From the NCBI GenBank assembly GCA_050944875.1, contig JBMNRW010000001.1, positions 85,436 through 149,435 of the forward strand: 64,000 bases of DNA, written 5' to 3'. Below the pieces are notes generated by a model. It had not been told where the DNA came from. It worked only from the letters and a program-made list of their open reading frames with translations, and did not search any database. Of this stretch, positions 15,580-64,000 are shown one piece after another (positions within the stretch are counted from its first letter, which is position 1; each line of letters opens with the position of its first letter). The DNA comes from Patescibacteria group bacterium. GTDB taxonomy: Bacteria > Patescibacteriota > UBA1384 > JACPKC01. The position numbers and the translations under genes are program-made.

Positions 15580-16101
15580 CTACTCCTTCGCTACCTTGAG
15601 CGATGCGAGCGTTTCAAGGGTAGCTCGGACGTTGTTGATCTTGTTTGAGCTCCCGATGATCTTCGAGAGGATGTTCCGGATACCAGCGAGCTCAATCACG
15701 GCACGAACTGGGCCACCAGCGATGATGGACGTTCCCGCTGCCGCTGGTTTTAGGAAGACTACTGCGCTGCCGTACTTGTGCGTCGTTTCGTGCGGGATGG
15801 TGTCGTTGACGATCGGCACGTCGATGAGGTGCTTCTTCGCCTGGTTGACCGCCTTCTGGATCGACGACTGTACGTCGCCGGCCTTGCCGACGCCCATGCC
15901 CACCTTCCCCTTCTTGTTCCCGATGACGACGAGCGCGCGGAACCGCATGCGCTTGCCACCCTTTACGGTGCGGGAGACACGGTCGATCTCGACGACGCGC
16001 TCTTCGAATTCCTCCTCGACGCGCTCTTCGCGTTCGCGGCTCGGCCGATTGTTCGGTCGGTTGCCACCTGGACGGTTGAATCGTTCTGGTCGGTCTGCCA
16101 T
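15580..16101 (-). CDS. rpsE: 30S ribosomal protein S5
   Basis: VVEIDRVSRTVKGGKRMRFRALVVIGN, S5 family. Confidence 0.95.
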   Translation of the reverse strand: MADRPERFNRPGGNRPNNRPSREREERVEEEFEERVVEIDRVSRTVKGGKRMRFRALVVIGNKKGKVGMGVGKAGDVQSSIQKAVNQAKKHLIDVPIVNDTIPHETTHKYGSAVVFLKPAAAGTSIIAGGPVRAVIELAGIRNILSKIIGSSNKINNVRATLETLASLKVAKE

Positions 16102-16109
16102 GTGTCTCC

Positions 16110-16457
16110 TTAGAGTGCGAGCCCTGCGGCGCGTGCGGCGTCCGCAAAGGCGGCGACGCGGCCATGGTACTGGTAGCCTCGGCGATCGAGCACGGCAGCC
16201 GTAATGCCAGCAGTGCTCGCTTTCTCAGCGATGAGCGTGCCCACGGCAGTCGCCTGCTCCATGCCGGCCGACGATCTCTTGAGCTCGCTGTCCGACGCGG
16301 CGACGAGCGTCTTCCCTGCCTCGTCATCGATGAGCTGAGCGCGGAAGTGCTTCGCGGTTCGTTCGATTGCGAGGCGCGGACGGTTCGCCGTACCGCGAAC
16401 CACGGCGCGGATGCGTCGGATGCGGGCGGCTCGTTGTGTGGTTCGTGTTGCGTGCAT
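16110..16457 (-). CDS. rplR: 50S ribosomal protein L18
   Basis: PRLAIERTAKHFRAQLIDD, L18 family. Confidence 0.95.
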   Translation of the reverse strand: MHATRTTQRAARIRRIRAVVRGTANRPRLAIERTAKHFRAQLIDDEAGKTLVAASDSELKRSSAGMEQATAVGTLIAEKASTAGITAAVLDRRGYQYHGRVAAFADAARAAGLAL

Positions 16458-16466
16458 GTGCTTCCT

Positions 16467-17009
16467 TTACGCGCCGGCTTTCGCGGCTTTCCCGGCCTTC
16501 CGCTGGACGATCTCATCGGAGTAGCGGATGCCTTTCCCCTTGTACGGCTCCGGCGGGCGGACGCGGCGGATGTTCGTCGCGACCTGGCCCACGAGTTGCT
16601 TGTCGATGCCGGTGACGGTGATGACGTTCTTCTGGACTGTGATCTCGATCCCCTCTGGTACGTCGAAGTTCACCGGGTGCGAGTAGCCGACGTTCAAGAC
16701 GAGCGTCTTCCCCTGCATCGCGGCCCGGTACCCGACGCCGTTAATCTCGAGCGATTTCGTATACCCGTTGGAGACGCCGGTGACGACGTTTGCGATGAGC
16801 CGAGTGCTTAGGCCGTGGAACGCCTTGGCGCGCTTGCCACCACCGCTCGTGGTGACGGTAATGACACTGTCCGCCTGTTCAACCACCGCGTACGGCGGCA
16901 GCGCCAAGCGGAGCTCGCCCTTCGGTCCTTTGGCAATGAGGTCTTTCCCGTCCACCGTTACGGTGACGTCGGCCGGAACGTGAATTGGTCGCTTACCAAT
17001 ACGGCTCAT
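16467..17009 (-). CDS. rplF: 50S ribosomal protein L6
   Basis: MSRIGKRPIHVPADVTVTV...; start ATG 17007-17009 overlaps the rpsH stop (ATGA). Confidence 0.95.
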   Translation of the reverse strand: MSRIGKRPIHVPADVTVTVDGKDLIAKGPKGELRLALPPYAVVEQADSVITVTTSGGGKRAKAFHGLSTRLIANVVTGVSNGYTKSLEINGVGYRAAMQGKTLVLNVGYSHPVNFDVPEGIEITVQKNVITVTGIDKQLVGQVATNIRRVRPPEPYKGKGIRYSDEIVQRKAGKAAKAGA

Positions 17010-32572: not shown

Positions 32573-35500
32573 TTACTTCCGCCCCTTCCTGAAGCCCGTC
32601 CCGGCTGGGATCAGGCGGCCAATAATGACGTTCTCCTTCAATCCCTTGAGGTGGTCGACCGCACCCCGGATCGCGGCGCCGATGAGGACGCTCGTCGTCT
32701 CCTGGAAGGAGGCTGCCGAGAGGAAGCTCGGCGTCGTGAGCGCGACGCGCGTAACACCAAGGAGTACCGGTTCGACGGTTGCCTCGTTCTTCCCCTTGCG
32801 GAGCTTGCGGTGCGCCTGCGCAAGCGCTCGTCGGTCGACGAGTTCGCCTGGTAAGAAGCGCGTGCCACCACCGTCGACCACGTGGACCTTCGAGAGTAGC
32901 TGTCCGACAATAATTTCAATGTGTTTGTCGTTCAGATCTTGGCCCTGAGAGGTGTAGATCTCTTGGATCTCTCGGATAATGTACGACTGCACTGCATCCT
33001 TGCCCTGGTACTTGAGGAGCTTTTGGAGGTCCAGGTGTCCTTCGGTCAATGCTGCACCGCGAACGACGCGCTCGCCGTCCTTGATGCGCGGTGTCTGCGT
33101 CGTGTCGAGCGGGTATTCGACGCTCATCGGCTCGAGGGCCTCGACGACGATCGTGCGATCTTTCACCGTCGCATTGCCACCGATGTTCGTTCGGATCGCC
33201 TTCTTACCCGGCGCCGAGGCAATTGCCTGCTTCGCCTTCACGCTCTCACCGTTCTTCACGAGGAGCTCGTAGCCCTCTGGTACTTCGACCGTGGTCTGGT
33301 CGATCGCATCCGCGATGACCTCGATCACGCGGCCGCTCTTCCGATCTCGGATCCGAGCCGTACCCTCGAGGTCAGCCATGATGGCTGGCGTCTTCGGCGA
33401 CCGCGCCTCGAGGAGCTCTTCAACGCGCGGGAGACCGCTCGTTGCGTCCGAACCGGCGACACCACCGGCGTGGAAGGTGTCGAGCGTGAGCTGGGTCGAG
33501 GGCTCACCGATCGCTTGCGCTGCGGTAATCCCGACGACTTCGCCGAGCTCAACGAGCTGCCCGGTTGCGAGGTCGCGGCCGTAGCACGCCTGACAGATCC
33601 CCCACTCGGTCTCGCAGTTCATTGGCGTGCGGACGGTGACTTCGGTAATCGTCGCGTCAGCCTCGATCGCCTGCGCAGCCTCGGGGCTAATGAGTTCGCC
33701 CGCGGCAACAGCTTCACTGTCCGCTGTCACAGCAGTAAGTGCGACACGTCCGTTCAGACGGTCACCGAAGGCGGTACCGCGCTCCTCGGACTCGGCGCGC
33801 GTTACCGTTACCCCGCGCTCGGTGCCACAGTCGGCCGTCGTGATAATCACGTCCTGCGCGACGTCGACGAGGCGACGGGTAAGGTAACCAGCGTCTGCCG
33901 TACGGAGCGCCGTGTCAGTCTTACCCTTACGACCAGCGTGCGTCGCTGTGAAGTACTCGAGCTCGGTCAGACCTTCTTTGAAGTTCGAGGTGATCGCGGT
34001 CTCGATAATCTCACCGGCCGGGTTAACAACGAGCCCCTTGAGGCCAGCCATCTGGTTGAGCTGCGTCTTCGAACCTCGGGCTCCAGATGCAACTGCAATG
34101 TGGACGGGGCTGTTCTTATCGAACTGCTCAATCATGTCCTTCATGATCGCGTCACGGGCCTGCTCCCAGCGTCGGATGATCTGCAGTCGGCGTTCGCTGT
34201 CGGAGATGAGACCCTGCTGATAGAGATCCTGGAGCTTCTCCACGTCCTTCTCACTCTGCTCGATGATCCCGTACTTTGTCTTCGGTGCGTGGACGTCGCT
34301 CATCGCGAAGCTCATGCCCGAGCGGAGCGCGTGCTCGTAGCCCAAGACCTTGATCTGGTCGACGGTCTCCGCTGCGGCGGCTTGGCCGAGCTTCGTGATC
34401 GTCTCGAAGATAATCCGCTTCAACGCCTTGCTGTCCATCGCGTCATTGCGGAACCGGAGTTCCTTTGGAATGACGTTGTTGAAGAGAATGCGACCGACGG
34501 TCGTTTCGACGAGCTCGTCTGCCGCCCCGTCTCGGGGGCTCATGCGAACCTTAATCTTCGCCCGAACGTGCAGGTCACCCATCTGGTACGCGAGGATCGC
34601 TTCGTTCTTCCCAGAGAAGATCTTGCCCTCACCCTTCACGCCATCCTGGAAACTCGTGAGGTAGTAGCAACCGTACACCATGTCGAGGTTTGGCGAGACG
34701 ACCGGCTCACCCGAGCTCGGCTTGAGGAGGTTCTTCGCCGATTCCATGATCTCGCGTGCTTCCCAGATTGCCTGGGCCGAGAGCGGGACGTGGACGGCCA
34801 TCTGGTCACCGTCGAAGTCTGCGTTGTACGCGTAGCAGACGAGCGGGTGCAGCTGAATCGCCTTCCCTTCAATGAGGACCGGCTTGAACGCCTGGATGCC
34901 GAGGCGGTGCAGGGTTGGAGCACGGTTCAAGAGGACATACTTCTCAGCGGTCACCTTCTCGAGCGCGTCCCAGACTTCTGGCGCGCGCTTCTCGATGAGG
35001 CGTGACGCGTTCTTGACGTTCTGAATGTGCCCTTCGGCAATGAGCTGGGCAATGACGAACGGCTTGAAGAGCTCGAGCGCCATCGTTTTCGGAATGCCGC
35101 ACTGGTTGAGCTTGAGCTCAGGACCAACGACGATGACCGACCGCCCAGAGTAGTCAACGCGCTTACCGAGGAGGTTCTGACGGAATCGCCCCTGCTTCCC
35201 GCGCAGCATGTCCGAGAGCGACTTCAGGCGTCGCTGAGTCGCACCGGCAGACACAGCGCGGCCGCGGCGGGCAGAGTTATCGATGAGCGCGTCCACCGCC
35301 TCCTGGAGCATGCGCTTCTCGTTCCGGCAGATCACCTCCGGCGCACCTTGGGAGAGGAGCTTCTTCAGCCGGTTGTTGCGGTTCAGAACACGGCGGTAGA
35401 GGTCGTTCAGGTCGCTTGCCGCGAACCGACCACCGTCGAGCTGGACCATCGGCCGCAGGTCTGGCGGAATGACTGGCAGGCGCGTCATGACGAGCCACTC

Positions 35501-36334
35501 AGGTGAAATCTTCGCCTCGCGCATCTGCGAGAGGAGTTGTAGTCGGCGCAGGAGCTTGCGACGCAAGGCGTCGCCAGCATCCTCAGCGCGCGCTTCGAGC
35601 TCTTTGACCTCGGTGTCGATGTCGATCGACTTAAGGAGCTCAAGTACTGCTTCTGCACCGATGCCAACGCGGATAACGTTGCCGTACCGGAGTGAGATCT
35701 CCTGGTAGCGCGCCTCGGAGAGAATGAGCTTACGCTTCAGCGCTTGGAGTTCTTGCTTCGTCTCGCGGTACGCCGCTTCGACGTCAGCTGCTGGCGCAGC
35801 GTTCTCGCCCGCTTCTGCGGTGAGCTCGGCGTACTCTTCTTCAAGTTGCTTTAGGAGGTCGTCACGGAGCTCGGTGTCGACGTCGAGAACAATGAAGCCC
35901 GCGAAGTAAATCACCTTCTCAATGTCTGCCACGGACATATCGAGGAGCTGTGACAAGACAGATGGAATGCCACGGACGAACCAGATGTGGGCGACCGGTG
36001 CCGCGAGCTCGATGTGTCCCATGCGCTCGCGCCGGACGGACGACCGGGTGACCTCAACGCCACACTTGTCGCAGACGACGCCCTTGTACCGGATCTTCTT
36101 GTACTTCCCGCAGTAGCACTCCCAGTCCTTCGTCGGACCGAAGATTCGCTCGTCGAAGAGTCCGTCGCGTTCCGGCTTCTGAGTCCGGTAGTTAATGGTC
36201 TCTGGTTTCAGGACCTCGCCGTAGGACCACTGGAGGACTTTCTCCGGGCTCGCGACCGCAATGCGGACGGCGTCGAAGTCAGTCAGGCGGATCCCCTCTC
36301 GGTCAGTTCGCTGTTTCGGTTGCTGTGCGCTCAT
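32573..36334 (-). CDS. rpoC: DNA-directed RNA polymerase beta' subunit
   Basis: Zn-finger [30 protein letters not shown] active site; 1253 aa. Confidence 0.98.
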
Positions 36335-36343
36335 GCTGACTCC

Positions 36344-39300
36344 TTACTCCTCACCCATCACTTCGTCCGGGCTCGCTTCCGGCGGGTTCTCCTCCTGTCC
36401 GGCCAGGAACTCGGTCGCCTCAATGTCACTCTGCTCGTCGCTCGGCGTCTCCTCGGTACCTTCCGCTGGCACTGGAGCCGGCTTCTTGCCGCCGTGGATG
36501 CTCGGGTCGACGAGTTCACCTGAGTTCGTCACGAGCTCGATGTCGAGCCCGAGGCTCTGCAACTCGCGAATGAGTACGTAGAACGAGGCAGGGATACTCG
36601 GTCGCTGAATCTCTTCTGAACGGATAATCGACTCGTATGCTTTCGATCGTCCAACGACGTCGTCGGATTTGATTGTCAGCATCTCTTGCAGCGTGTGCGC
36701 AGCACCGTACGCTTCGAGCGCCCAGACTTCCATCTCGCCGAATCGCTGGCCGCCGAACTGCGCCTTACCGCCGAGCGGCTGCTGAGTGACCATGGAGTAC
36801 GGCCCGATCGAACGCGCGTGCATCTTGTCATCGACGAGGTGGATGAGCTTCAGGATGTACGTGTACCCGACAGTCGTTTCCTGGTCGAACTCGTTCCCCG
36901 TACGGCCGTCACGGAGCTTCACCTTGCCGTTCGCAGGCAACCCGGCCTCGACGAGGAGTTCACGGATCTTCTCTTCCTTCAACCCTTCGAAGACCGGCGA
37001 TGCCATCGTCTTCCCGAGCTTCTGCGCCGCCCAGCCGAGGTGCGTCTCGAGCACCTGGCCGAGGTTCATACGCGACACGACGCCGAGCGGGTTCAGAATA
37101 ATGTCGACTGGCGTCCCGTCCGGCAGGTACGGCATCTCCGCCTGCGGGAGGATCGCCGCAATGACGCCCTTGTTCCCGTGTCGACCGGCGAGCTTGTCAC
37201 CGACCGAAATCTTGCGGAGCTGGGCAATCGAGACCTCGACGAGCTGGTACACGCCGGTCGGGAGCTCGTCGCCCGCGTCTTTCGAGAAGATCTTGACGTC
37301 GACGACCTTCCCGCGCTCGCCGTGTGGCAAGCGGAGCGAAGTATCCTTCACGTCTTTCGCCTTCTCGCCGAAGATCGCGCGGAGAAGCTTCTCCTCGGCG
37401 GAAAGCTCGGTCTCGCCCTTCGGCGTGATCTTCCCGACGAGGATGTCACCAGCCGACACCTCGGCACCAAGCCGAATGATGCCCTGGTCGTCGAGGTTTG
37501 ACAGCGCATCCTCGCCGACGTTTGGAATGTCGCGGGTAATGACTTCTGGGCCGAGCTTCGTATCGCGGACTTCGATCGGGTACTTCTCGATGTGAATCGA
37601 GGTTAAGAGGTCTTCCCGGACGAGCCGGTCAGAGATGACGATCGCATCCTCGTAGTTGAGACCCTTGTACGACATGTACGCGACGAGGAGGTTCTGGCCG
37701 AGCGCGAGCTCGCCGCCGTCGGTGGCCGGGCCGTCAGCGAGAACATCGCCCCGCTTCACCTTCTGGCCGACCTTCACGAGGGCGCGCTGGTTGATCGACG
37801 TCGCCTGGTTTGAGCGGATGAACTTGTGGAGCTGGTACCGGTCCTCAACATCTTTCCCGCCTTCCTTGCTCGTTACGACGATCTCAGCAGCGCTGACGTA
37901 CGTGACTTCGCCGGCACGGCGAGCCATGACCATTGAGCCTGAGTGCTCAGCTGCGTCCTTCTCCATACCAGTGCCGACGAGCGGCGCCGACGGCTTGATG
38001 AGCGGGACTGCCTGTCGCTGCATGTTCGATGCCATGAGCGCGCGGACGATATCGTCGTTCTCGACGAATGGAACGAGCGACGGCGAGATAGCGACGATCT
38101 GCTTCGGTGAAACGGACATGTAGTCGATCTCGGAGACGTCGACTGTCACTGGCTTTCCGTTGCGCCGCGCGAGCACCTGCGCCTCAGCAAAGGAACCGTC
38201 TGGGTTCGTCGGCGTCGAGGCAGGAGCGATCGTCGATACTTCCTCAACGGCAGCGTCGAGGTGGACGAGCTCGTCGGTCACGACGCGCTTCCCACCCTTC
38301 GTCGCAACCTTGAAGTACGGGGTCTCGATGAACCCGTACGGGTTGACGTACCCGTAGCTCGCGAGATAACCGACGAGACCGATGTTCGGGCCTTCCGGCG
38401 TTTCAATCGGGCAGATTCGGCCGAAGTGTGACGCGTGCACGTCACGAACTTCGAACCCGGCGCGTTCGCGTGAGAGACCGCCTGGACCCGTCGCGTTGAG
38501 CGTCCGCTTGTGCTCGAGCTCTGCGAGCGGGTTGGTCTGGTTCATGAACTGAGAAAGCTGCGAGCTCGCGAAGAACTCTTGGAGGATCGCCTGCACCGGC
38601 CGGTTGTTGATGAGGCTGGCTGGGGTGACGAGCGCAGGGTCGGCAACGCTCATGCGATCTTTGACGATTCGCTCCATGCGCAAGAGGCCGACGCGTAGTC
38701 GCCCTTGCATGAGTTCACCGACCGCCCGGACACGCCGGTTCTTCAAGTGGTCAACGTCGTCAGCGGTCGCCATCGGGTCATTGTTGAGCCGGATGATCTC
38801 CTTGATGACCTCGATAACGTCTTCGACGCGCAGCACGCGGAACTCCGGCGTCTCCGGGTGGTTCACGCCAAGGCGCTGGTTCATCTTGTACCGGCCAACC
38901 TTGCCAAGGTCGTAGCGCTTCGGGTTGAAGAGCATGGTCTGGAGGAAGGTCTTCGCGGTGTCAGGTGTTACGAGGTCGCCTGGTCGAATGCGCTTGTACA
39001 CCTCGATGAGCGCGTCTTCGTACGACTCAGCTGGGTCGCGCTCGAGCGTGCGTTCGATGAAATTGTGTTCTTCGTCGAGGTCAACGCCGGCGAACGCCTG
39101 ACGGATCTGGTCGGTGGAGAGGTTGCCGATTGCGCGCAGGAACGTCGTGACCGGGATCTTCCGCTTCCGGTCGATCTTTACCGAGATCACGTCTCGGCCG
39201 CTCGTCTCGAACTCAAGCCAAGCACCGCGGGAAGGGATGATCTTTGCACCGAAGAGCTTTCGGCCGGCGCTCATCTCGTCCATGAAGAGGACGCCGTAGC

Positions 39301-39691
39301 TCCGGACAATCTGTGAGACGACGACACGCTCGACGCCGTTGATGATGAACGTGCCACGGTCGGTCATAACGGGGAAATCACCGAAGTAGACTTCTCCCTT
39401 CTTCGTCTTCTTTGTGACCTTGTTCTCGAGGGTCACCTTCACGTGGAGCGGCGCCTTGTAGGTGAGGTTCCGCGCCCGCGCCGTCGTCTCAGAGATCTTC
39501 GGCTGACCAAGCTCGTACTCACCGAAGGCCAATGTGTAGTTCTGATTCGTGAAGTCCTCAATCGGGGAAATCTCCGCCAGGAGCTCCCGCATCCCCTCGG
39601 TGAAGAACCATTCGTAACTCGCGGTCTGGATCTCCGTGAGATCCGGCAACGGCACGTGCCGTGCTGCTTTCGTGAACCGAACTCGCTCCAT
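36344..39691 (-). CDS. rpoB: DNA-directed RNA polymerase beta subunit
   Basis: Full beta-subunit signatures; start at [11 protein letters not shown] (ORF extends to 39712). Confidence 0.98.
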
Positions 39692-39847
39692 GCCGACTCC
39701 TCTCTGCCACACCCCGGTGCTAGGGGTGGGAACAAGAAACGCAAAAAACGCCCAAACTAGGGCCCTCTCCAGATCCTATGTTCTGGCGGTTCGCTCTTCC
39801 ACTTGGTGACTCACCCTGCTGCGCTACGGGTTGATACCGGGATCGTA

Positions 39848-55332: not shown

Positions 55333-55548
55333 CTAGTTGCTCATGCGCTTGAGCATCGGGAGACCCGTGCGAGAGTTCTCCATGACCTCGTATCCGTCTG
55401 GCAACTGCTCAACAGGCGTGCCCTTCGCGTTCTTCGCATCGCGCGAGAAGTAGAAAATCCGCTGTTTGCGTCCACCGCGGAGCGTCACTTCCTTCGTGTA
55501 CAGGTAGTACGTTTCCCCTGTCTTCTTTGACTGCGCTGCGTATGGCAT
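55333..55548 (-). CDS. small hypothetical protein (71 aa)
   Basis: ATG at 55546-55548 preceded by GGAGGAGAGGAGG; MPYAAQSKKTGETYYLYTKEVTLRGGRKQRIFYFSR...; no family recognised. The ORF track's 44-codon upstream extension is unlikely to be real. Confidence 0.4.
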   Translation of the reverse strand: MPYAAQSKKTGETYYLYTKEVTLRGGRKQRIFYFSRDAKNAKGTPVEQLPDGYEVMENSRTGLPMLKRMSN

Positions 55549-55687: not shown

Positions 55688-55712
55688 AATGCAGCCGGGA
55701 TGGCTGCATTTG
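55688..55712. terminator. hairpin terminator downstream of tRNA-Gln
   Basis: AAATGCAGCC-GGGA-TGGCTGCATTT. Confidence 0.5.
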
Positions 55713-55725
55713 CTCTACGGTATCG

Positions 55726-55799
55726 TGGCTCCGGGACTAGGATTCGAACCTAGATTCACGGCTTCAAAGGCCGCTGTCCTGCCATTAGACGATCCCGGA
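55726..55799 (-). tRNA. tRNA-Gln (anticodon UUG)
   Basis: TCCGGGATCGTCTAATGGCAGGACAGCGGCCTTTGAAGCCGTGAATCTAGGTTCGAATCCTAGTCCCGGAGCCA: U1:A72, G73, anticodon loop CU-UUG-AA, encoded CCA. Confidence 0.9.
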
Positions 55800-55840
55800 T
55801 CACCGCGGCAATGGTACCAAAAACCCCGAAGGATCGGGGT

Positions 55841-56180
55841 ATCTGGTGCGAACGTACTCATAAGCCGGGTTCTGTCTTCGCATGAAGCGAAGGGTGGTAT
55901 CTCTCTCAGCGTCCGGACCCAGGGACGTCCCCCGAGCAGGGGTTGACGACGAGTGGGTCCACCGGACTTGCACGACGTAAGTGTTTTGCACTGCGACACC
56001 TTCCAGTGCCGCACTGTGAGCTCTTACCTCACCGCTTTTCACCCTTGCCCGCACTCTTTCGAGCCGCTGGCGGTATGGTCTCTGCGCCACTCTCTCTGGC
56101 CTCACGGCCGCCCAGCTTGCACTGGGTACGCTGCTCTACCGTGCCCGGACTTTCCTCTCGTTGTTACACGAGCACCAACC
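55841..56180 (-). ncRNA. rnpB: RNase P RNA, bacterial type A
   Basis: Minus strand carries CGAGAGGAAAGTCCGGGC (P4 5' strand), GGGCAAGGGTGAAAAGCGGTGAGGTAAGAGCTCAC (P10-12 region; cf. E. coli GGGCAAGGGUGAAAGGGUGCGGUAAGAGCGCAC) and GACAGAACCCGGCTTAT (P4 3' strand), followed by hairpin CCCCGATCCTTCGGGG+TTTTT. Only spurious ORFs occupy this span. Confidence 0.85.
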
Positions 56181-56257
56181 ACGGTGCGTTCGCGACAATA
56201 TCCTACTGATTTCCGCCAGGAGCGTCAATCAGTGCTCACTGTATCTGTGCTGTTACC

Positions 56258-57064
56258 CTAGCCCTGCGAAGATGGCACAGGCTCAGGGTTTACGCCGCCG
56301 GCGCGTTGGTTGTTTGGATTCGCGTCGATCCGCTCCCCATTGATCGCTCTGTTTGCTGGCGTGCGCTGGATGCTACCCGTTCCGGTCGCAGTCGCACCCT
56401 CCGCACCGCTCTGTACGCTTGTCGGAGTATTAGATACACCCGGGACATACGGCGTGGGATTCCTGTCGAGGCCCAGTGCCTGGACGATAAGCGGAATCAA
56501 CAATAAAAGTGCAAGCCCGGTCACGACACTCACGAGGAGTTCTGCCGACGACTTCACTTTATCCGGACTCCCCAATGAGGTGATGTACTGGTAGCCCGCG
56601 TACACGATCATGAGAAAAACCAAGAGAAACGCGAGCGGGATTGCTTTCTGATAAATGTTTTTCAAGTTGACCGTGATATCGCAATTAGGATCGATTAACT
56701 CAAAACGCTCAAATACAGGATCACAAGGTACGTCGGATACAGGATTACTTACTGGCGGAACGTAGTTGTAGGTCCCATCCGGATTTACAGTAAGCGTACC
56801 ACCATTAGCAATATATTTATCCTTTACTTCCTTGGGTACCTTCTCGTAAATTTTTCCTTGTACTTCAGTTTTTCTGTCAGTGACTGGTCGAAGATTCTCC
56901 TGCTGCTTCTCTGACACCTGCCTCGGAGGATCTTCTGCGCTTGCGTTCCATGGCCACCACTGCGTGTTCGCGGTCACAGCGACGCCGAGCGTTGCCAGCG
57001 CAAAGAGGACGGCTGCCAAGTGAGCACGCATCGAGAACGATTTGAAGTAGCGAGTAAGCCGCAT
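56258..57064 (-). CDS. hypothetical secreted/membrane protein with AT-rich core (possible horizontally acquired; two adjacent TM helices reminiscent of a pilin-like topology)
   Basis: Signal-peptide-like N-terminus, Lys/Asn/Tyr-rich domain encoded by a ~300-bp stretch of ~42% GC (56600-56900), two hydrophobic helices, Gly/Asn/Pro-rich tail. Confidence 0.5.
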   Translation of the reverse strand: MRLTRYFKSFSMRAHLAAVLFALATLGVAVTANTQWWPWNASAEDPPRQVSEKQQENLRPVTDRKTEVQGKIYEKVPKEVKDKYIANGGTLTVNPDGTYNYVPPVSNPVSDVPCDPVFERFELIDPNCDITVNLKNIYQKAIPLAFLLVFLMIVYAGYQYITSLGSPDKVKSSAELLVSVVTGLALLLLIPLIVQALGLDRNPTPYVPGVSNTPTSVQSGAEGATATGTGSIQRTPANRAINGERIDANPNNQRAGGVNPEPVPSSQG

Positions 57065-57092
57065 CGTACCCTCCTTCTATCAATTACACAGT

Positions 57093-57118
57093 ATAGCAGT
57101 GCCGAATAGCAGTGCCGA
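57093..57118. repeat. 13-bp perfect tandem direct repeat (ATAGCAGTGCCGA x2) next to a 9-bp-stem hairpin spanning the uvrA stop
   Basis: ATAGCAGTGCCGA-ATAGCAGTGCCGA directly followed by CTACCGCAC-CAATGTTA-GTGCGGTAG; lies between the uvrA stop and the SD (GAAGGAGGG) of the downstream gene. Confidence 0.6.
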
Positions 57119-57132
57119 CTACCGCACCAATG

Positions 57133-59637
57133 TTAGTGCGGTAGTAAGGTCTTGAGGTACTGTCCAGTCACCGAACGCTCAACAGCTGAGACCTGCTCAG
57201 GCGTACCTTGCGCAACAATCTCACCGCCGCCTGCGCCCCCATCTGGCCCAAGGTCAACGAGCCAGTCGGCAGACTTAATCACGTCGAGGTTGTGCTCGAT
57301 GACGAGCACGGTATTCCCCTTGTCCACGAGCGCCTGGAGTACTTCGAGCAGGTGTCGGACATCTTCGAAGTGCAATCCTGTCGTCGGCTCATCAAGAATA
57401 TAGAGCGTATTGCCCGTTGATGCCCGAGAGAGCTCAGTCGCGAGCTTCACGCGCTGCGCCTCACCACCTGACAAGGTAGTGGCCGGCTGTCCAAGCTCTA
57501 GGTAGCCAAGCCCGACGGCAACGAGCACCTGGAGCTTTGTGGCGATGGGTGGTTGGTCTGCGAAGAACTCATTCGCTTCCGTGATGGACATACTGAGCAC
57601 GTCAGCAACGGTCTTCCCGAGGTATGTAACATCCAGAATGCTCGGGTTATACCGCGTGCCGCCACACGCTTCACACGTGACGTACACATCAGGCAAGAAG
57701 TGCATCTCGTGCTTAATGACCCCGTCGCCGCGACAGACCTCACAACGTCCGCCACGGACGTTGAAGCTGAAATGACCAGCGTCGTACTTTCGCTCGATCG
57801 CAAGCGGGGTAGCAGCGAACAAGTCTCGGATTCCTCCGAACACATTTGTATACGTCGCAGGGTTTGAACGGGGGGTGCGACCAATTGCCGATTGGTCAAC
57901 GTTAATGACTTTGTCGATATGCTCGAGGCCGCGCACTGCCTTGTATGGACCAGGCTCGGCTTTTGCGCGATAGAAGTGCTTGGCGAGTACCTTTGCAAGT
58001 ACATCTCTCACGAGCGTTGACTTTCCTGAACCGGATACGCCCGACACGCAGAGGAGCGTCTGTAGTGGAAATGTCGCAGTGACATTACGGAGGTTTCGAC
58101 TTGTCACGCCCTCGAGGATGAGCGACTTGCCACTCCCCTTGCGACGAGCAGCTGGCACAGTTATCTCACGTTCGCCGCGAAGATATTGGGCAGTTAGGGA
58201 TCGCTTCGACTCTCGGACGGCCTCAGGCTTCCCTTCGGCCACAACTTTACCGCCTGCTACGCCTGCGCCTGGACCAATATCGATGAGGTAGTCAGCCGCC
58301 TCGATCATCTGCGTGTCGTGCTCGACGACGATAAGTGTATTCTCAAGATCACGAAGCTCAAGGACAGCCTCAATAAGCTTATCGAGATCGCGCGGATGCA
58401 AACCGATCGAAGGTTCGTCGAGGACGTATAGCACACCGGTAAGTCCTGATCCAAGTTGCGTCGCGAGCCGAATTCGCTGTGCCTCTCCCCCGGCGAGCGT
58501 ATCTGCGCTACGGTCGAGCGTCAGGTAGTGCAACCCCACGCGCTCAAGGTATGACAAGCGCGATAGGACGTCTTTGCAAATCGGCGCTGCAAGTTCGTGT
58601 GCGGTTCCCTCAAACTGGGTGGGTAGCTGCGCAAAGAACCCTTCTGCTTCTTCGATCGTGAGTGATGTAACGTCGACAATCGATTTGCCAGCAACTCGGA
58701 CTGCGAGCGCCTCTGGCTTTAACCGCTGCCCATTACAGCGCCCACAAACACGCTCCACCATGTATCGCTCAATTTCTGTGCGAACGTACGGTGAGTCAGT
58801 ATCTTGGTACCGTCGGTTAAGGTGGGGCACTACCCCCTCAAAACCGCGCTCAGGATCACCGTACAGCAGCCGTTGTCGTTCAGTAGGATCGAATTGCCCA
58901 ACTGGAGTATCAACGCTTCCGCCGGCGCGACTGAACTCATCGAGTAGCCGCTGGACAACCTGCCCCTGGTTCCCGAGCCGTGACAGTGGCCGGATCGCCC
59001 CCTCGCTGAGCGTCAGCCTTGGATTAGGCAAGATGAGACTCGGTTCAATCTCCCACCGAGTACCGAGTCCGTGACAGTGCTGACAAGCGCCTTGCGGACT
59101 GTTGAACGAAAATGTGCCGAGTGAGAGTTCATCGTACGTCGCATCACAGGCCGGGCAGTAGAGCTGCTTCGATGTTCGCCGCTTCTGGCTCTGTGGACGA
59201 GCTCGTGATGGCTTTACTGCCTTCGTCACTGCCTGAACAATTAGCACGGCATCGCAGGTCGGACAATGCGGCGTACCAACCCGGGCAAAGAGCAGTCGGA
59301 GGTAGTCGTAGATCTCACTCATCGTGCCAACCGTGGACCGGGGAGTCTGCGCTGCACTGCGTTGATCGATGGAAATAGCCGGCGCCAAGCCTTCAATTAA
59401 GTCGACGTCTGGCTTCTGGAGCGTGCCAAGAAACTGGCGTGCGTAGGGGGAAAGCGATTCGACGTAGCGTCGCTGCCCTTCGGCGTAAATCGTATCGAAG
59501 GCGAGCGATGACTTTCCAGAGCCAGAGAGCCCTGTGATTACTGTCAGTTTGTTCCGCGGGATACTCACGGACACATTCTTCAGGTTGTGGACCCGGGCAC
59601 CTCGGACCATGAGGTGTGTGCGCCGCGGTTGGCTCAT
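57133..59637 (-). CDS. uvrA: excinuclease ABC subunit A
   Basis: Two ABC ATPase modules and Zn-finger cysteines ([24 protein letters not shown]); start uncertain (MSQPRR vs MVRGARVHN; ORF extends to 59688). Confidence 0.95.
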
Positions 59638-59794
59638 AGTGGGATTCTCCATTCGGCTACCCGTCAAAGACGGGAGGAGTATAGCCACTCAGTCCACTCC
59701 TTGCAACCCTACCAGCGCTCTGTTAGGCTCCGGTCGAAGTACACGATTCGGCGGCAAACCGTTGGGGGCGGGGCCGAAGCAATGGAGGTCAGGC

Positions 59795-60313
59795 ATGTTT
59801 GAGGGAAATGGTCAGGACACAATGAGCGGCCCTGGCACTGTTGTTGGCGCAAACGTCAAACTCACTGGCACGATCAGTGACGTGAACGATATTACTGTCC
59901 ATGGCACCGTCGATGGCGAAGTGCGGTCGGACAAGACCGTCACGATCTCAGAAACTGCTTCTGTTAAGGGGCCGGTCACTGCCCAGATGGTCAGCGTCTC
60001 CGGCCGGGTAAACGGCTCAATTGTCGCCCAGCAGAAGCTCGAGCTTCAGCCGACCGCAGTTGTGAGCGGCTCGATCACGACCGCCGAGCTCAACATCAAG
60101 CCAGGCGCCGTCTTCAACGGCAAGAGCACGATGGCGAAGGGCGACGAGCAACTCCTGCGCGACTCGAAGGCACACGGAAACGAAACAGCACACAGCAATC
60201 CAACCCCCATTCGGACCGAGCCGGATCCAGTCCCAGAACCTGAGCCGAAGCAGCCTGAATCGAAGGCCCGAGAAACGGTGCCAGCGACACAGGGCGTCGA
60301 ACTCGAAGACTAA
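59795..60313 (+). CDS. bactofilin-family cytoskeletal protein
   Basis: Beta-helical repeats ([23 protein letters not shown]...VSGRVNGSI...VSGSI) and Pro/Glu-rich tail; ATG 59795 preceded by GGAGGT (ORF track starts at 59534 inside uvrA). Confidence 0.75.
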
Positions 60314-60340
60314 CCCAAGAGAGCACACCTGGGACGGTGG

Positions 60341-61129
60341 ATGTACTACTACATCAGTGAAGCTCCCCGATCCCGCGACGAGCAACGCAGCCTCGAGCAC
60401 GTTCGAACACTCCTGACGAACTACGGCATTGCCGGTGAATTCGTCACTACCTCTCCTGCGAGGACGATTGAAGAGCTCGCCGAGCTCGGCGTGGCAAAGA
60501 AGTACTCGACCATCGTCGGGGTTGGTTCGGATATGCTCATCAACCGCTTGGCGTCTCTCCTCGCTGGAACGCCGTACGTGTTCGGCGCGCTCCCGCTCAC
60601 GAACCCCCGAGCGCTCGAGCTGATTACTGGCGTCACGACCATCGAGGAAGCGGCCGAGGCACTGAAGTACCGACGCATCTACACTGTCCCGATTACCCGC
60701 ATTGAGCCGAATAAGTTCCTCCTGACCGAAGCTGTCATCCACCTCCCCCGCCCCGCAGTAGCCCGCCTAGAAATTGATGGGGCGAAGATCGAGGCGACCT
60801 GCACTGACATCCGGATCGCCGGAAACGGTCGCGTCATCATTGAGCACAAGGATACTGCGACGAGCACCCTCGGCAGCGTGTGGCAGTGGATGCGGGGCCA
60901 CGTCGCGACCGACCCAGCGCCATCGCACTTCGTCGGCACCCACATTACGCTCGAACTCGACACCACCTGCCCGGCCTACGTTGGTACTGACATCATCGCG
61001 AAGACGCCGCTTGCGGCGACGGTGCTGCCAGGAGTATTGAAAATCATTGCGAAGCGTGGTAGGCTCACGCAAGCACAAGAGCAAACTGAACCCGCCGGGA
61101 GGCAGCAATACGCACTGACAAACGGGTAA
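60341..61129 (+). CDS. DAGK_cat/NAD-kinase-fold protein with degenerate GGDG motif (GVGSD); function unknown
   Basis: YYYISEAP...[44 protein letters not shown] aligns with the lipid-kinase core (..VVAAGGDGTVNEV..LGILPLGTGND..) but lacks the glycine-rich catalytic loop. Confidence 0.4.
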
Positions 61130-61602
61130 ACGAGGCAATTTCTGCCCGCGAACTTCGACTCATTGACGAGCAGGGAAACCAGCTCGGCGTCGTCAGTCGC
61201 GAACAGGCGTTCTACCTCGCCGGCGAAGCTGCGCTTGACTTAATGGAGCTCTCGTCGCCAGGCACCGTCCCACCGGTGGTTCGAATCCTCGACATTGGGA
61301 AGTACCAGTACGAGGAAGAGAAGCGAGCCAGGAAGCAGCGCGTGCAGAACCGCGGGGGCGAAATGAAGGAAGTGAAGCTCTCGTACAAGATCGACGAGCA
61401 TGACTTCCAAACGAAACTCCGTCGCGCCCAGCAGTTCCTTGCCAAAGGCGACCGCGTCAAGGTATACATACAGCTGCGCGGCCGCGAGAACATCTTTGCA
61501 GAACAAGCGAAGGACAACGTTGTCCGATTCGCCACTGAACTTGGCAGCGCAATCGAATCAATGAGCAAGCAGGGAAACCGCATTACTGCAATACTGAAGT
61601 GA
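61108..61602 (+). CDS. infC: translation initiation factor IF-3 with non-AUG (ATA) start
   Basis: Frame gives ...[62 protein letters not shown]...; in-frame TGA 21 nt upstream of ATA (61108), GGGAGG SD 6 nt upstream. The ORF track only catches the internal Met at 61243. Confidence 0.8.
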
Positions 61603-61610
61603 GGAACGGC

Positions 61611-61814
61611 ATGAGCAAGCGCAAAACCCACCACTCCGCATCGAAGCGTATCCAGAAGCGAACGAAAGCAGGCGCGTTCATTGGCCGTGCCATGAGCGCA
61701 CAGCACCGCACGACCGGCAAGTCATCGCGTGTTCAGCAGCGGTCACGGAAGACGCAATCGCTGTCGAGCGCGAATGTAAGTCGGCTTGAAAAGCTCCTGC
61801 CGTACAGCGGGTAA
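61611..61814 (+). CDS. rpmI: 50S ribosomal protein L35
   Basis: MSKRKTHHSASKRIQKRTKAGAF...LLPY; GAGGAA SD. Confidence 0.9.
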   Translation: MSKRKTHHSASKRIQKRTKAGAFIGRAMSAQHRTTGKSSRVQQRSRKTQSLSSANVSRLEKLLPYSG

Positions 61815-61825
61815 AGAGGACTACT

Positions 61826-62176
61826 ATGCCACGAGTCAAACGCGGAACCCAGGCGCGCAAGCGTCACAGCAATCTCCTTCGACGGACCAAGGGCTTTCTC
61901 CACGGGCGAAAGAACCTCATCAAGCTCGCCCACCAGGCGGTCGTTCGCTCGATGCACAATGCGTACCGGGATCGACGAACAAAGAAGCGGACGTTCCGAT
62001 CACTCTGGATTGTACGCCTGAACGCAGCGCTCCGAGAACACGAACTGACGTACTCAACCTTTATGCCGCTCATGAAGCAAGCAAACGTCACCCTAAATCG
62101 CAAGGTCCTCTCTGAGCTCGCCGCTGACTATCCTGAGCAATTCGCAACACTGGTTCAGCGCATCGCGAAGAAGTAG
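61826..62176 (+). CDS. rplT: 50S ribosomal protein L20
   Basis: MPRVKRGTQARKRHSNLLRRTKGF, L20 family. Confidence 0.95.
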   Translation: MPRVKRGTQARKRHSNLLRRTKGFLHGRKNLIKLAHQAVVRSMHNAYRDRRTKKRTFRSLWIVRLNAALREHELTYSTFMPLMKQANVTLNRKVLSELAADYPEQFATLVQRIAKK

Positions 62177-62199
62177 TCACTACTCAAGCAGATCAGACT

Positions 62200-62225
62200 G
62201 TAGCACCGCCACCGGGCGGTGCTAC
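62200..62225. terminator. hairpin between convergent rplT and lspA
   Basis: GTAGCACCGCC-ACCG-GGCGGTGCTAC; no strong T-tract. Confidence 0.4.
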
Positions 62226-62605
62226 TTCGTGGTACGGGAGAAACCAACGAGCAGCAAGACGCCGGTCACAATGGCAATGTCAGCAATGTTGAAGTCAGGG
62301 AACCACTGGGCGAGGTGGATCGGATCAATCACTGCGCCCACGCGGATTCGATCAATGAGATTGCCTGCTACGCCAGCTAGAATAAGTGCCCAAGCGAATC
62401 TCCCTCTCGGCAGTGCGCGCTCGCGCCCGGTCTGCTGCCAGAGTAGCGCCAGTACCAGTAGGCCGAGCGCAATAAACGCTACCCGAGCACCGGGAATACT
62501 CCCCCCTAAGCCGAACGCCAACCCAGCGTTCTCCGTACTGGGTCCAGCCTGCCACTTGTGCACCTGGTCGAGCACAAGGACGACAATGAATACAATTGGT
62601 TGCAC
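62222..62605 (-). CDS. lspA: lipoprotein signal peptidase II (short)
   Basis: GNLIDRIRVGAVIDPIHLAQWFPDFNIADIAI, conserved LspA motifs. Confidence 0.85.
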   Translation of the reverse strand: MQPIVFIVVLVLDQVHKWQAGPSTENAGLAFGLGGSIPGARVAFIALGLLVLALLWQQTGRERALPRGRFAWALILAGVAGNLIDRIRVGAVIDPIHLAQWFPDFNIADIAIVTGVLLLVGFSRTTK

Positions 62606-62641
62606 GAAACCTACGCTACCGGGTACAATACCCGGCGTCCA

Positions 62642-62718
62642 GGTCGTATAGCTCAGTTGGTTAGAGCGCTTCGTTCACATCGAAGAGGCCCCTGGTTCGA
62701 GTCCAGGTACGACCACCA
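62642..62718 (+). tRNA. tRNA-Val (anticodon CAC)
   Basis: GGTCGTATAGCTCAGTTGGTTAGAGCGCTTCGTTCACATCGAAGAGGCCCCTGGTTCGAGTCCAGGTACGACCACCA: cloverleaf, anticodon loop UU-CAC-AU, encoded CCA. Confidence 0.9.
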
Positions 62719-62744
62719 CGACGACCACGCACGGGAGTGCTATA

Positions 62745-63332
62745 GTGCGAGCAATGACGAACCAAACCCCCTATACCGGCAAAGCACCTGAGTCAGCGTA
62801 TGAGACGCTGCGGTTCATCGTGCTCGCGCTCATCGCTGCGCTAGCAGTGCGCGCCTTCATTGCGCAGCCGTTCGTTGTTCAGGGACAGAGCATGGAGCCA
62901 ACCTTTCACAGCCAGGACTACCTGGTCGTCGACAAGGTGAGCTACCGCATCGGCGAACCGGCCCGCGGCGACATCGTCGTGTTCAAGTCACCCGAGGACA
63001 TGTCGCAGAATTATATTAAGCGGGTGATTGGCCTCCCGGGTGAGACGATTCGTATCGAGAACCAGCGGGTCTCGGTTAATGGGACGCCGCTCGACGAGCA
63101 GTACCTCTCGATCGAAGACCAGAAACGTATCTTCGGTAGCAATGGCACGTTCTCGATGGAGCAGCAGCTTGGCAAGAGCGAGTACTTCGTGCTCGGAGAT
63201 AACCGTCAGCACTCGTCTGACTCCCGCCGGTGGGGACCGCTCCCACGTCAAAACATCCTCGGCCGAGCGATTCTCACGGTATTTCCCTTCGCGAGCTTCG
63301 GTCCGATCGAGCGGCCTCTATACACAGAGTAG
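62745..63332 (+). CDS. lepB: signal peptidase I (S26)
   Basis: QGQSMEPTF (Ser box), NYIKRVIGLPGE (Lys box), VLGDNRQHSSDSRRWG. Confidence 0.9.
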   Translation: MRAMTNQTPYTGKAPESAYETLRFIVLALIAALAVRAFIAQPFVVQGQSMEPTFHSQDYLVVDKVSYRIGEPARGDIVVFKSPEDMSQNYIKRVIGLPGETIRIENQRVSVNGTPLDEQYLSIEDQKRIFGSNGTFSMEQQLGKSEYFVLGDNRQHSSDSRRWGPLPRQNILGRAILTVFPFASFGPIERPLYTE

Positions 63333-63370
63333 ACGACAGCACGTGACCGACGTGCAATACTGCAGTGTAC

Positions 63371-64000
63371 ATGGTGTACGCTGATATTGTTATTGACGCG
63401 CCGTCGCCCAAGATCCTTAGCTACGGAATCACGCCTGAGCACCTGCCGTCAGTCGTGCCGGGGCAGCTCGTCGAGGTTCCGCTTGGGAACAGGGCCGTCA
63501 TGGGAATCGTGTGGGCACTCCGCAAGCGCCTGAATCAGGCCGTCGCACCGACCTCAATCCGCCCGCTCAATCGGGTCCTCTCCAATGGCCCCTGGGCAGA
63601 CCCCTCTACCCGGAAACTCGCCGAGCTCATTGCCCACGAGACAGACGAACCGATTGGCACCTGCCTCTTTCGCCTTCTCCCTCCGCCAGGCAAGCGCAGC
63701 ATCCCTACACTTACTGGCGAACTAACGCCATCCAGCAGGCGAGGAACCACGTACCACGTCATTGCAGCGAGTCGTCTCCGGACCAAAACGTACGTCGACC
63801 TCATTGTGCGCGCCCACCGCTCAGGCGAGCAGTCACTCATCGTCGCACCGCTCCACCGGTTTGGCGATCTTCAGAATCAACTCTCGTCAACCGAACTCCT
63901 CGTCACGTCGGTCTCCGCTGCCGACGCACCTACCAGCCAACGACGGACAGCAAGCGCGTTCGCAAAGGGGGAAATCGACGTACTCATCGCCACGCGCCAC
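63371..64000 (+). CDS. priA: primosomal protein N' (PriA), N-terminal part (3' end outside window)
   Basis: Open frame from ATG 63371 to the window edge: ...VVPGQLVEVPLGNRAVMGIVWAL... resembles the PriA N-terminal DNA-binding region. Confidence 0.6.
   Translation, partial: MVYADIVIDAPSPKILSYGITPEHLPSVVPGQLVEVPLGNRAVMGIVWALRKRLNQAVAPTSIRPLNRVLSNGPWADPSTRKLAELIAHETDEPIGTCLFRLLPPPGKRSIPTLTGELTPSSRRGTTYHVIAASRLRTKTYVDLIVRAHRSGEQSLIVAPLHRFGDLQNQLSSTELLVTSVSAADAPTSQRRTASAFAKGEIDVLIATRH

Follow-up and report, generated by a model that had tools for sequence, protein, structure and literature searches.

The gene described here is a 268-residue open reading frame (ORF) at 56258..57064 on the minus strand of a 64-kb stretch of Patescibacteria DNA, the whole of which is called the window. 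This gene probably encodes a single-copy, orphan VirB2-like pilin of the sort known from type IV secretion systems (T4SSs), in a Patescibacterium related to the Berkelbacteria, and would be an old resident of the interval between uvrA and rnpB whose alleles and modules are swapped by recombination. An original prediction had presented the ORF, on account of its AT-rich core, as a horizontally acquired surface protein beside the RNase P RNA and tRNA-Gln genes. The ORF exists as described and the membrane protein is recognizable, but the horizontal process to which the comparisons point is a different one: the whole gene with both of its spacers (about 56194-57166) appears to have been exchanged as an allele between near-identical genomes. 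This tract of divergence extends far beyond the AT-rich core, and outside the core its GC content at third codon positions (GC3) is normal. VirB2-like pilins are already known as a family in Patescibacteria; the feature of moderate interest in this case is the likely strain-level replacement of alleles at a site flanked by housekeeping genes.

The protein consists of a leader, a variable N-terminal ectodomain, a two-helix membrane hairpin, and a C-terminal tail. Nine alleles were compared, namely that of the window and eight orthologous ones, and the orthologues of Berkelbacteria relatives were considered in addition. Among the comparison loci, L002 is a contig (59% GC) that is near-identical to the window in the flank and was treated as conspecific, L003 and L004 are a near-identical pair of contigs with 47-48% GC, and L005 and L020-L023 are short contigs that hold the 3' end of uvrA, the pilin gene, and the 5' end of rnpB. 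The Berkelbacteria relatives are represented by L024 (UvrA identity 72%), L025 (70%), and L027 (63%). The sequences of L025/L026 and of L027/L028 are 100% identical within each pair, which makes them uninformative as conspecific pairs.

The clearest case is the comparison between the window and L002. Their flanks are 99.25% identical over 6,835 bp (57166-64000), without any 200-bp segment below 97.5%, and their rnpB genes are ~98% identical. Between about 57166 and 56194, identity falls to 30-80%, with sharp breakpoints located 11 codons before the uvrA stop codon (~57166) and two bases before rnpB (~56194). The divergent allele cassette, as delimited by pairwise alignment, sliding identity, and synonymous divergence (dS), spans the final ~11 uvrA codons, the spacer, the entire pilin gene, and the 3' spacer up to rnpB (56194..57166). 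Over 839 codons of uvrA the two genomes show a dS of 0.023 and a nonsynonymous divergence (dN) of 0.004, whereas the proportion of synonymous differences (pS) amounts to 0.58 in the pilin leader and to 0.88, a saturated value, in the hairpin, where dN is 0.077. The ectodomains are unalignable and include a 30-codon indel, and the tails are unrelated. Since synonymous sites are saturated on a conserved protein segment, the alleles of the window and L002 are, by this measure, old and have not diverged in place since the strains split. The fact that the last ~11 codons of uvrA (57133-57166, minus strand) fall in the divergent tract puts the apparent recombination boundary inside the uvrA coding sequence. 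In L002, this end of the protein reads ...GHYLKPLLGQ, and the C-termini of UvrA vary in length among relatives.

The second conspecific pair, L003 and L004, behaves in a more gradual fashion. Here pS is 0.010 in uvrA and 0.03 in the pilin leader, the ectodomain contains six nonsynonymous changes, one synonymous change, and a 3-codon indel, and from the first helix of the hairpin up to the tail pS then climbs (0.31, 0.75, 0.65), before identity returns to 100% at rnpB. Besides these pairwise contrasts, the alleles are composed of segments with different affinities. The leader and hairpin of the window allele are closest to L002 and its tail is closest to L005, from a different species, with a tail dS of 0.31 (73% identity over the longer tail) in a pair whose hairpin pS is 0.80 and whose uvrA ends have a dS of ~1.07. 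Similarly, a GGTLxVxxDGTY module is found in alleles P0001, P0003, and P0007, and the tail module IDANPNNQRAGGV in alleles P0001, P0002, and P0007. In the hairpin, the two conspecific alleles stand at a distance (72% nucleotide identity) like that between alleles of different species (59-72%). With near-identical genomes carrying divergent alleles between sharp breakpoints, and with mosaic segments within the gene, the site looks like a recombining, hypervariable surface-protein locus.

The gene itself keeps its place among the relatives recovered. It is flanked on the left by uvrA (57133..59688, minus strand; identified from its ORF and homologues) and on the right by the class A RNase P RNA gene rnpB (55845..56192, minus strand; Rfam RF00010, 160 bits), both of them putative recombination anchors. 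The gene rnpB starts 66 nt past the pilin stop codon, and tRNA-Gln(UUG) (55726..55799, minus strand) comes next. In each of the 12 related loci that were examined, uvrA is followed by a pilin gene, and no presence/absence polymorphism was observed among these relatives, which range in genome GC from 45 to 63% and in UvrA identity from 99% down to 63%. The order uvrA, pilin gene, rnpB (and tRNA-Gln) recurs in L002-L005, L020-L023, L024, and L027, and rnpB lies downstream of the pilin gene in L002, L003, L004, L024, and L027; in the latter, the sugar-transferase genes further downstream also match those of the window. Because this order recurs in the relatives recovered, gene order indicates that the pilin gene is an ancient resident of the uvrA-rnpB interval. 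The nearest named relatives by UvrA are Candidatus Berkelbacteria, with 63-72% identity. By the patterns used, the lineage is unrepresented among GTDB species representatives, a scan of which returned a single distant Doudnabacteria match, and a metagenome scan gave nothing beyond distant hairpin matches within T4SS clusters.

A reduced form of the protein occurs in one Berkelbacteria relative, where a minimal pilin of 118 residues (L025, 6642-6998; L026, 6645-6998), made of leader and hairpin and devoid of ectodomain and tail, is encoded directly after uvrA. No rnpB is found downstream of it in these two loci. This minimal pilin may represent the ancestral form, of classical size.

Membership in a T4SS pilin family is indicated by several profile comparisons, in line with the VirB2-like topology that had been suggested from the sequence. 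Residues 134-197 of the window protein match Pfam T4SS_pilin (PF18895) with 28.8 bits, above the gathering cutoff of 26.6 bits. The orthologues tested all have PF18895 as their best family, too, with scores beyond the cutoff in 8 of 11. No match to the classical TrbC/VirB2 family (PF04956) was obtained for the window protein at E<=10, and two orthologues gave sub-threshold matches to it only (E 0.034 and 0.094). The profile of the nine alleles aligns in hhalign, with 92.9% probability (E 3.8e-7), to a stand-alone pilin of a distant Patescibacteria locus (L018), for which matches were obtained to PF18895 (56.8 bits) as well as to Pfam TrbC/VirB2 (32.7 bits). After that pilin, the L018 cluster encodes a hairpin-TrbL/VirB6 fusion, PrgI, and the VirB4 ATPase, in this order. 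Of the distant matches to the hairpin of the window, the closest is this fusion protein (L018, 3866-5341), in which a TrbL/VirB6-like multi-pass protein carries a PF18895 hairpin at its N-terminus; identity is 42% over residues 143-198. An exhaustive profile search yielded 3,567 cluster representatives at E<=1e-3 and 8 at E<=1e-30; on these counts, the alleles form a small orthologue group within a large family. Among the 144 further relatives listed, the median length is 202 residues.

The hydrophobic segments are those that the original prediction had noticed, a signal-like N-terminus (residues 10-34) and two closely spaced helices (136-164 and 170-201). The leader (residues 1-43; 56936..57064, minus strand) has a basic n-region, a hydrophobic core, which AlphaFold2 (AF2) models as a helix over residues 7-33, and a WWPW motif followed by A-S-A; W36-W39 are invariant in the nine alleles. 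VirB2 and TraA also carry a long leader, of about 40-50 residues, that is cleaved at an A-x-A site. On the basis of this analogy and of the AXA motif itself (A41-S42-A43), cleavage is predicted to occur after A43.

The hypervariable N-terminal ectodomain (residues 44-113; 56726..56935, minus strand) is unalignable or indel-rich between alleles and contains most of the AT-rich core together with the module VPKEVKDKYIANGGTLTVNPDGTYNYVP, a helix plus beta-hairpin that is also carried by the L002 and L020 alleles. AF2 models this part with one helix (78-86) and two strands (90-93 and 99-102), with a predicted local distance difference test score (pLDDT) of 72-84 over residues 72-102. Within it, GGTLTVNPDGTYNYV (residues 89-103; 56755-56799) resembles the repeat motif of large BapA/VCBS-type adhesins and is modeled as a beta-hairpin (pLDDT ~80). 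The match of GTLTVNPDGTYNY to NCBIfam NF045619 'BapA adhesin' reaches 15 bits (E 0.0099), far short of the cutoff of 180, and was taken as a resemblance of motifs only.

A conserved juxtamembrane segment (C114 to C128; 56681..56725, minus strand) connects the ectodomain to the membrane. C114 is invariant in the nine alleles and C128 in the five closest, and the distant alleles also have a Cys pair. C114 and C128 would form a disulfide on the outer face. The T4SS_pilin hairpin (residues 134-197; 56474..56665, minus strand) is formed by two transmembrane helices and a short basic loop, SLGSPDKVKSSAE, whose stretch LGSPDKVKSSA includes two Lys. In the AF2 model built on an 82-sequence alignment the helices span residues 130-162 and 167-196 with pLDDT 87-94, whereas nine sequences had given a poor model (pLDDT 57); the deeper alignment raised the hairpin and left the tail disordered. 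Since dN is 0.077 at saturated dS between the window and L002, the hairpin is, as far as substitution patterns can tell, under strong purifying selection. The C-terminal tail (residues 199-268; 56261..56470, minus strand) is variable and rich in Pro, Thr, Gly, and Asn; linker and tail are disordered in the model (tail pLDDT <55), and the tail is predicted to be extracellular.

It has to be considered whether such a protein is a pilus subunit at all. The hairpin might serve only as a membrane anchor, or associate with the VirB6 channel, in a stand-alone variable surface protein or adhesin. This alternative is supported by the orphan position of the gene, with no T4SS gene within 64 kb, by a mature protein of ~225 residues, three times the size of classical VirB2, by the closest distant match of the hairpin being the N-terminus of a VirB6 fusion, and by the general lack of pili in the T4SSs of Gram-positive bacteria (PMC12102498, PMC12857230). 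However, those members of the family that are encoded in T4SS clusters have the size of pilins, and one of them matches Pfam TrbC/VirB2; the minimal orthologue of 118 residues occupies the same site in L025; and the conservation of the hairpin is that expected of a packing interface. The large size is not peculiar to this locus either: extended forms are common in the family, as 90 of the 144 listed relatives exceed 160 residues. As for the orphan position, VirB2-like pilins lie near virB4 in 1135 of 1948 Patescibacteria assemblies (PMC12102498), and since the association is seen only in these, adjacency to T4SS genes is usual and not obligatory. Such pilins occur widely in this phylum; they vary, and in some cases they form arrays and diverge strongly (Quinonero-Coronel et al. 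2025, PMC12102498). Those of the T4SS cluster are essential in Southlakia epibionticum, a Saccharibacterium (Wang et al. 2023, PMC10633639; PMC12857230), and VirB2-like pilins are counted among the few Patescibacteria-specific envelope components that are essential for epibiotic growth (PMC10633639, PMC11665869). On balance, a function unrelated to pili is rather doubtful, and identification as a pilin is preferred.

The AT-rich core that first drew attention to the gene is real. The stretch 56600-56900, said to have ~42% GC, was measured at 41.2%, and 56601..56900 (41%) is the lowest 300-bp stretch of the window in a sliding analysis (64-kb mean 0.598, standard deviation 0.034, z -5.5; next-lowest stretch 0.487); the background of ~62% that had been quoted is too high, the whole window having 59.8%. 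The dip extends to codon usage: the GC3 of residues 46-140 is 0.40, compared with an expectation of 0.71 if these residues were written in the codons customary for this genome (z -6.8). Amino-acid composition as the sole cause of the dip is ruled out by this same-residue comparison, and the description of the domain as rich in Lys, Asn, and Tyr proved only roughly right, the commonest residues of this segment being V, P, K, N, E, and D. In their GC3 the leader, hairpin, and tail conform to the genome (z -0.9, -0.2, and -1.3, respectively). Among the real genes of the window the core is the lowest-GC3 stretch. The sole stretch with a lower value is a listed ORF at 15692-16516 (minus strand), whose GC1 of 0.88 and GC3 of 0.34 are the signature of a wrong frame over real genes, and which should not be counted as a gene.

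The same deficit reappears in other alleles. In eight of the nine, the ectodomain has a lower GC3 than the leader of the same allele and its uvrA flank, for instance 0.39 versus 0.65-0.74 in the window, 0.37 versus 0.65-0.72 in L002, and 0.53 versus 0.77-0.82 in L023; in low-GC hosts the deficit is small. Given its recurrence in the ectodomains of these eight, low GC3 would be a mark of the variable region rather than of a recent import. On this view the AT-rich core is a codon-level signature of the variable ectodomain, present in almost all alleles, and gives no evidence of a recent gene insertion. An intrinsic origin of the low GC3 in the variable ectodomain is favoured, and could consist in a fast-turnover, indel-prone sequence that stays near an AT-biased mutational equilibrium or in selection on AT-rich codons.

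A different reading of the same data would keep the gene as a resident and trace its AT-rich ectodomain to a fairly recent intragenic recombination with a relative of ~45-48% GC, the segment not having ameliorated yet. The core GC3 of 0.40 equals that of low-GC relatives with the same locus (0.40-0.46 in L003/L004; the L027 genome has 45% GC), the gene is demonstrably mosaic, and GC3 is host-like in the rest of the allele, all of which would fit such an import. Against it, the deficit is shared by eight of the nine alleles. The GGTLxVxxDGTY module has a GC3 of 0.39, 0.39, and 0.46 in three hosts of 55-60% GC, and its copies are only 18-32% identical at third positions, i.e. saturated, so that repeated recent imports would be needed; moreover, a low-GC donor allele with the module was not found in the searches made. 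Import of the ectodomain is thus unlikely, and an intrinsic signature is the preferred explanation.

The pattern of divergence could also be produced by assembly, if contigs of different species had been joined at conserved uvrA or rnpB and the gene were simply a fast-evolving orthologue that differs between species. In favour of this, the comparison loci are all short-read metagenome contigs, most of those that bear alleles being 1-2 kb long or ending in tRNA-Gln or in the conserved 3' part of uvrA (L001, L002, L004, L005, L020-L023). Exact matches of 55-91 nt in rnpB are common to different species, and the contigs L002 and L004 reach only a little beyond this gene; for these two reasons, the right flank cannot prove conspecificity. 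At the left junctions, in contrast, the window-like uvrA end has no 31-mer in common with any other species sampled (exact matches of <=23 nt to the last 700 nt of uvrA in the window), and neither has the L003 gene (<=16 nt), which makes chimeras there unlikely as far as the sampled sequences go. Furthermore, the effect is seen in two pairs that come from different pipelines and have different left breakpoints, and the divergence between L003 and L004 rises gradually. Finally, the mosaicism of the tail cannot be an artefact, because the tails of the window and L005 are similar and not identical (dS 0.31), a relation that no chimera explains. Mis-assembly as the general cause is therefore quite improbable. 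Assembly graphs seem to tangle at the pilin locus, which fits several co-occurring variants and could reflect low coverage. Alleles P0002 and P0006 come from one sample, ERZ27315056; the reads behind L002 are those of SRR23967303, and those behind L004 belong to SRR27197505.

A horizontally acquired island, comprising the gene or its AT-rich core and integrated by rnpB and tRNA-Gln, can be dismissed as extremely improbable, for although the composition is a strong outlier and the gene does lie near a tRNA gene and rnpB, it occupies this position in every relative, even at 63% UvrA identity, fills the uvrA-rnpB gap by itself, without integrase, att-like repeat, or other cargo, is separated from the tRNA gene by rnpB, and is atypical only over residues 46-140. 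The neighbours named in the original prediction are thus present, with tRNA-Gln being a conserved neighbour and not an integration site, and acquisition of the gene does not stand: the relatives from 99% to 63% UvrA identity all hold it in place, and nearly all orthologous alleles share the low ectodomain GC3, which in essence is the outcome that the original prediction had named as its own refutation. No integrase was detected among the Pfam-scanned neighbours in the window (21 proteins were scanned in all), and a repeat search of the 64 kb found no repeat, att-like or other, involving 55700-57200.

Two other sources of variation were considered and rejected. For a diversity-generating retroelement, neither a repeat of the region within the 64 kb nor a reverse transcriptase among the 21 scanned proteins was found, and instead of fixed-length substitutions the alleles show large indels together with synonymous changes along their whole extent. 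Gene conversion from silent cassettes likewise finds no repeat or paralogue of the pilin gene in the 64 kb, where a hairpin hidden Markov model run on six-frame ORFs detected no second copy of the hairpin gene.

Several points weigh against the interpretation of the gene as a T4SS pilin with recombining alleles. No T4SS family was found in the 64-kb window, hence the designation of the gene as an orphan, nor within 10 kb in L002 and L003, and assembly into a pilus is suggested by family membership. The comparison loci are without exception metagenome contigs, the informative conspecific pairs are two (window/L002 and L003/L004), and, with L002 and L004 ending just after rnpB, a mis-assembly at one junction could formally have occurred. 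Last, natural competence, a possible route of exchange, has been demonstrated in Saccharibacteria only.

If the protein is a pilin, its mode of action could be as follows. The long Sec-type leader, ending in WWPW-x-ASA, would direct export and be cleaved after A43. The two-helix hairpin would insert in the membrane with its basic loop inside and both termini outside, the Cys pair sitting just outside the membrane, and would pack subunits together. Should a T4SS encoded elsewhere in the genome polymerize the pilin, the variable ectodomain and tail would coat the filament, or else the cell surface. Alleles and sub-modules would be swapped by homologous recombination, as the divergence pattern suggests, with crossovers in the conserved uvrA end, the 5' end of rnpB, and the conserved leader and hairpin, and near-identical strains would in this way come to carry anciently diverged alleles. 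The exchange might proceed via natural transformation, competence having been demonstrated in a Saccharibacterium (PMC10633639). Diversifying selection, exerted by host contact and surface recognition or by phages, would maintain the variety. More tentatively, the uvrA-rnpB interval of Berkelbacteria-like Patescibacteria could serve as a dedicated site for exchanging the alleles of a surface-exposed T4SS pilin, where two nearly invariant housekeeping genes are the homology arms, exchange of whole alleles and of sub-modules takes place between strains and even species, and the resulting serotype-like or host-range-like types are subject to frequency-dependent selection.

The expression signals of the gene, all identified by sequence match, are strong and conserved. 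A candidate promoter at 57118-57090 (minus strand) consists of a -35-like TCGGCA, a 17-nt spacer, and an extended -10 element, TG-n-TATACT, and is followed by a Shine-Dalgarno sequence, AAGGAGGG, at 57076-57069 (minus strand). The extended -10 element (TGnTATACT or a close variant) lies ~20 nt upstream of a perfect AGGAGGG in all nine alleles and in L024. The 13-bp tandem repeat that had been reported just upstream of the gene is indeed there (57093-57118; ATAGCAGTGCCGA on the plus strand), in two perfect copies (2.0 copies, 100%). The duplication is unique to the window allele and overlaps the -35 element and the spacer, supplying the -35-like hexamer at 17-nt spacing from the conserved extended -10. 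A role as a phase-variation element was rejected, as two copies present in one allele only lend no support to switching. In the variable 3' spacer, a promoter-like site for rnpB (TTGACG, 17 nt, TAGGAT) is found at 56200..56228 (minus strand); both hexamers are kept in L002, where the rest of the spacer is divergent. No terminator was found between the pilin gene and rnpB, and read-through into rnpB is possible for that reason.

The surroundings are those of a conserved chromosomal region. The 64-kb window, part of a contig of 175 kb, is made of housekeeping DNA, with genes for aminoacyl-tRNA synthetases, IF2, Obg, CdaA, UvrA, and a signal peptidase, to which gyrAB can be added by synteny with L003. 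Judged by size and position alone, rpoB and rpoC probably account for the large ORFs at 32573-39712. Just past tRNA-Gln, a 71-residue ORF (55333-55548, minus strand; MPYAAQSKKTGETYYLYTKEVTLRGGRKQRIFYFSRD...) is identical at 68 of its 71 positions in L003, whose genome DNA is only ~72% identical, and is ~80% identical in the Berkelbacteria locus L027; this unusually conserved small protein has no Pfam match.

If the proposed exchange is real, it would be the first population-genetic evidence that an epibiotic bacterium of the candidate phyla radiation (CPR) varies the surface of a T4SS pilus as pathogens vary their flagellin or type IV pilin. It would also offer a strain marker for uncultured Patescibacteria that is accessible to the polymerase chain reaction: the uvrA end and rnpB would permit the variable region to be amplified from metagenomic DNA for strain typing. 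A single-copy gene between housekeeping genes, with a constrained hairpin and swapped outward parts, would further be a natural handle on what these filaments touch. For the scanning of sequences, a sharp intragenic dip in GC3 can flag a hypervariable surface domain and need not flag an island.

The protein agrees with the VirB2-like pilins known from Patescibacteria (PF18895; PMC12102498, PMC10633639) in family, in the plan of a leader plus a two-helix hairpin, in its chromosomal location in CPR genomes, in the preserved loop motif YAGYxYITSxGxP...K, and in the high variability of the exposed parts. It differs from them in being a single orphan between uvrA and rnpB and not a member of a virB4/virB6 cluster or of an array, in its extra ectodomain of ~70 residues and its 70-residue tail, and in the nature of its variation, which is allelic (between strains, at one locus) and not paralogous (within an array). 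With VirB2/TrbC (PF04956), TraA of the F plasmid, and the archaeal CedA1 (PDB 8dfu) it shares the helical hairpin with a basic loop, whereas, in comparison with classical conjugative pilins, it is much larger, has no significant match to Pfam TrbC, and shows nothing that points to cyclization or to a T4SS neighbourhood.

In behaviour, another resemblance is that to the hypervariable-region forms of flagellin (fliC), which underlie H antigens (Hu & Reeves 2020, PMC7018530). There, too, conserved parts for polymerization and export flank an exposed region that is unalignable within a species, and alleles recombine at a fixed chromosomal locus (PMC7018530). The two proteins are unrelated in sequence, fold, and export route, and in the pilin it is both termini that vary and the membrane hairpin that is conserved. 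Allele groups are also known for the type IV pilin gene of Pseudomonas aeruginosa, pilA, which lies between pilB and a tRNA-Thr gene, is deeply diverged among strains, and is accompanied in these groups by accessory genes. That pilin builds a type IV pilus and is not a T4SS pilin, but the arrangement is the same, a pilin allele cassette at a fixed site by a conserved gene and an RNA gene. By analogy, flagellin hypervariable-region forms and type IV pilin allele groups would be the closest counterparts, in behaviour, of the pilin between uvrA and rnpB.

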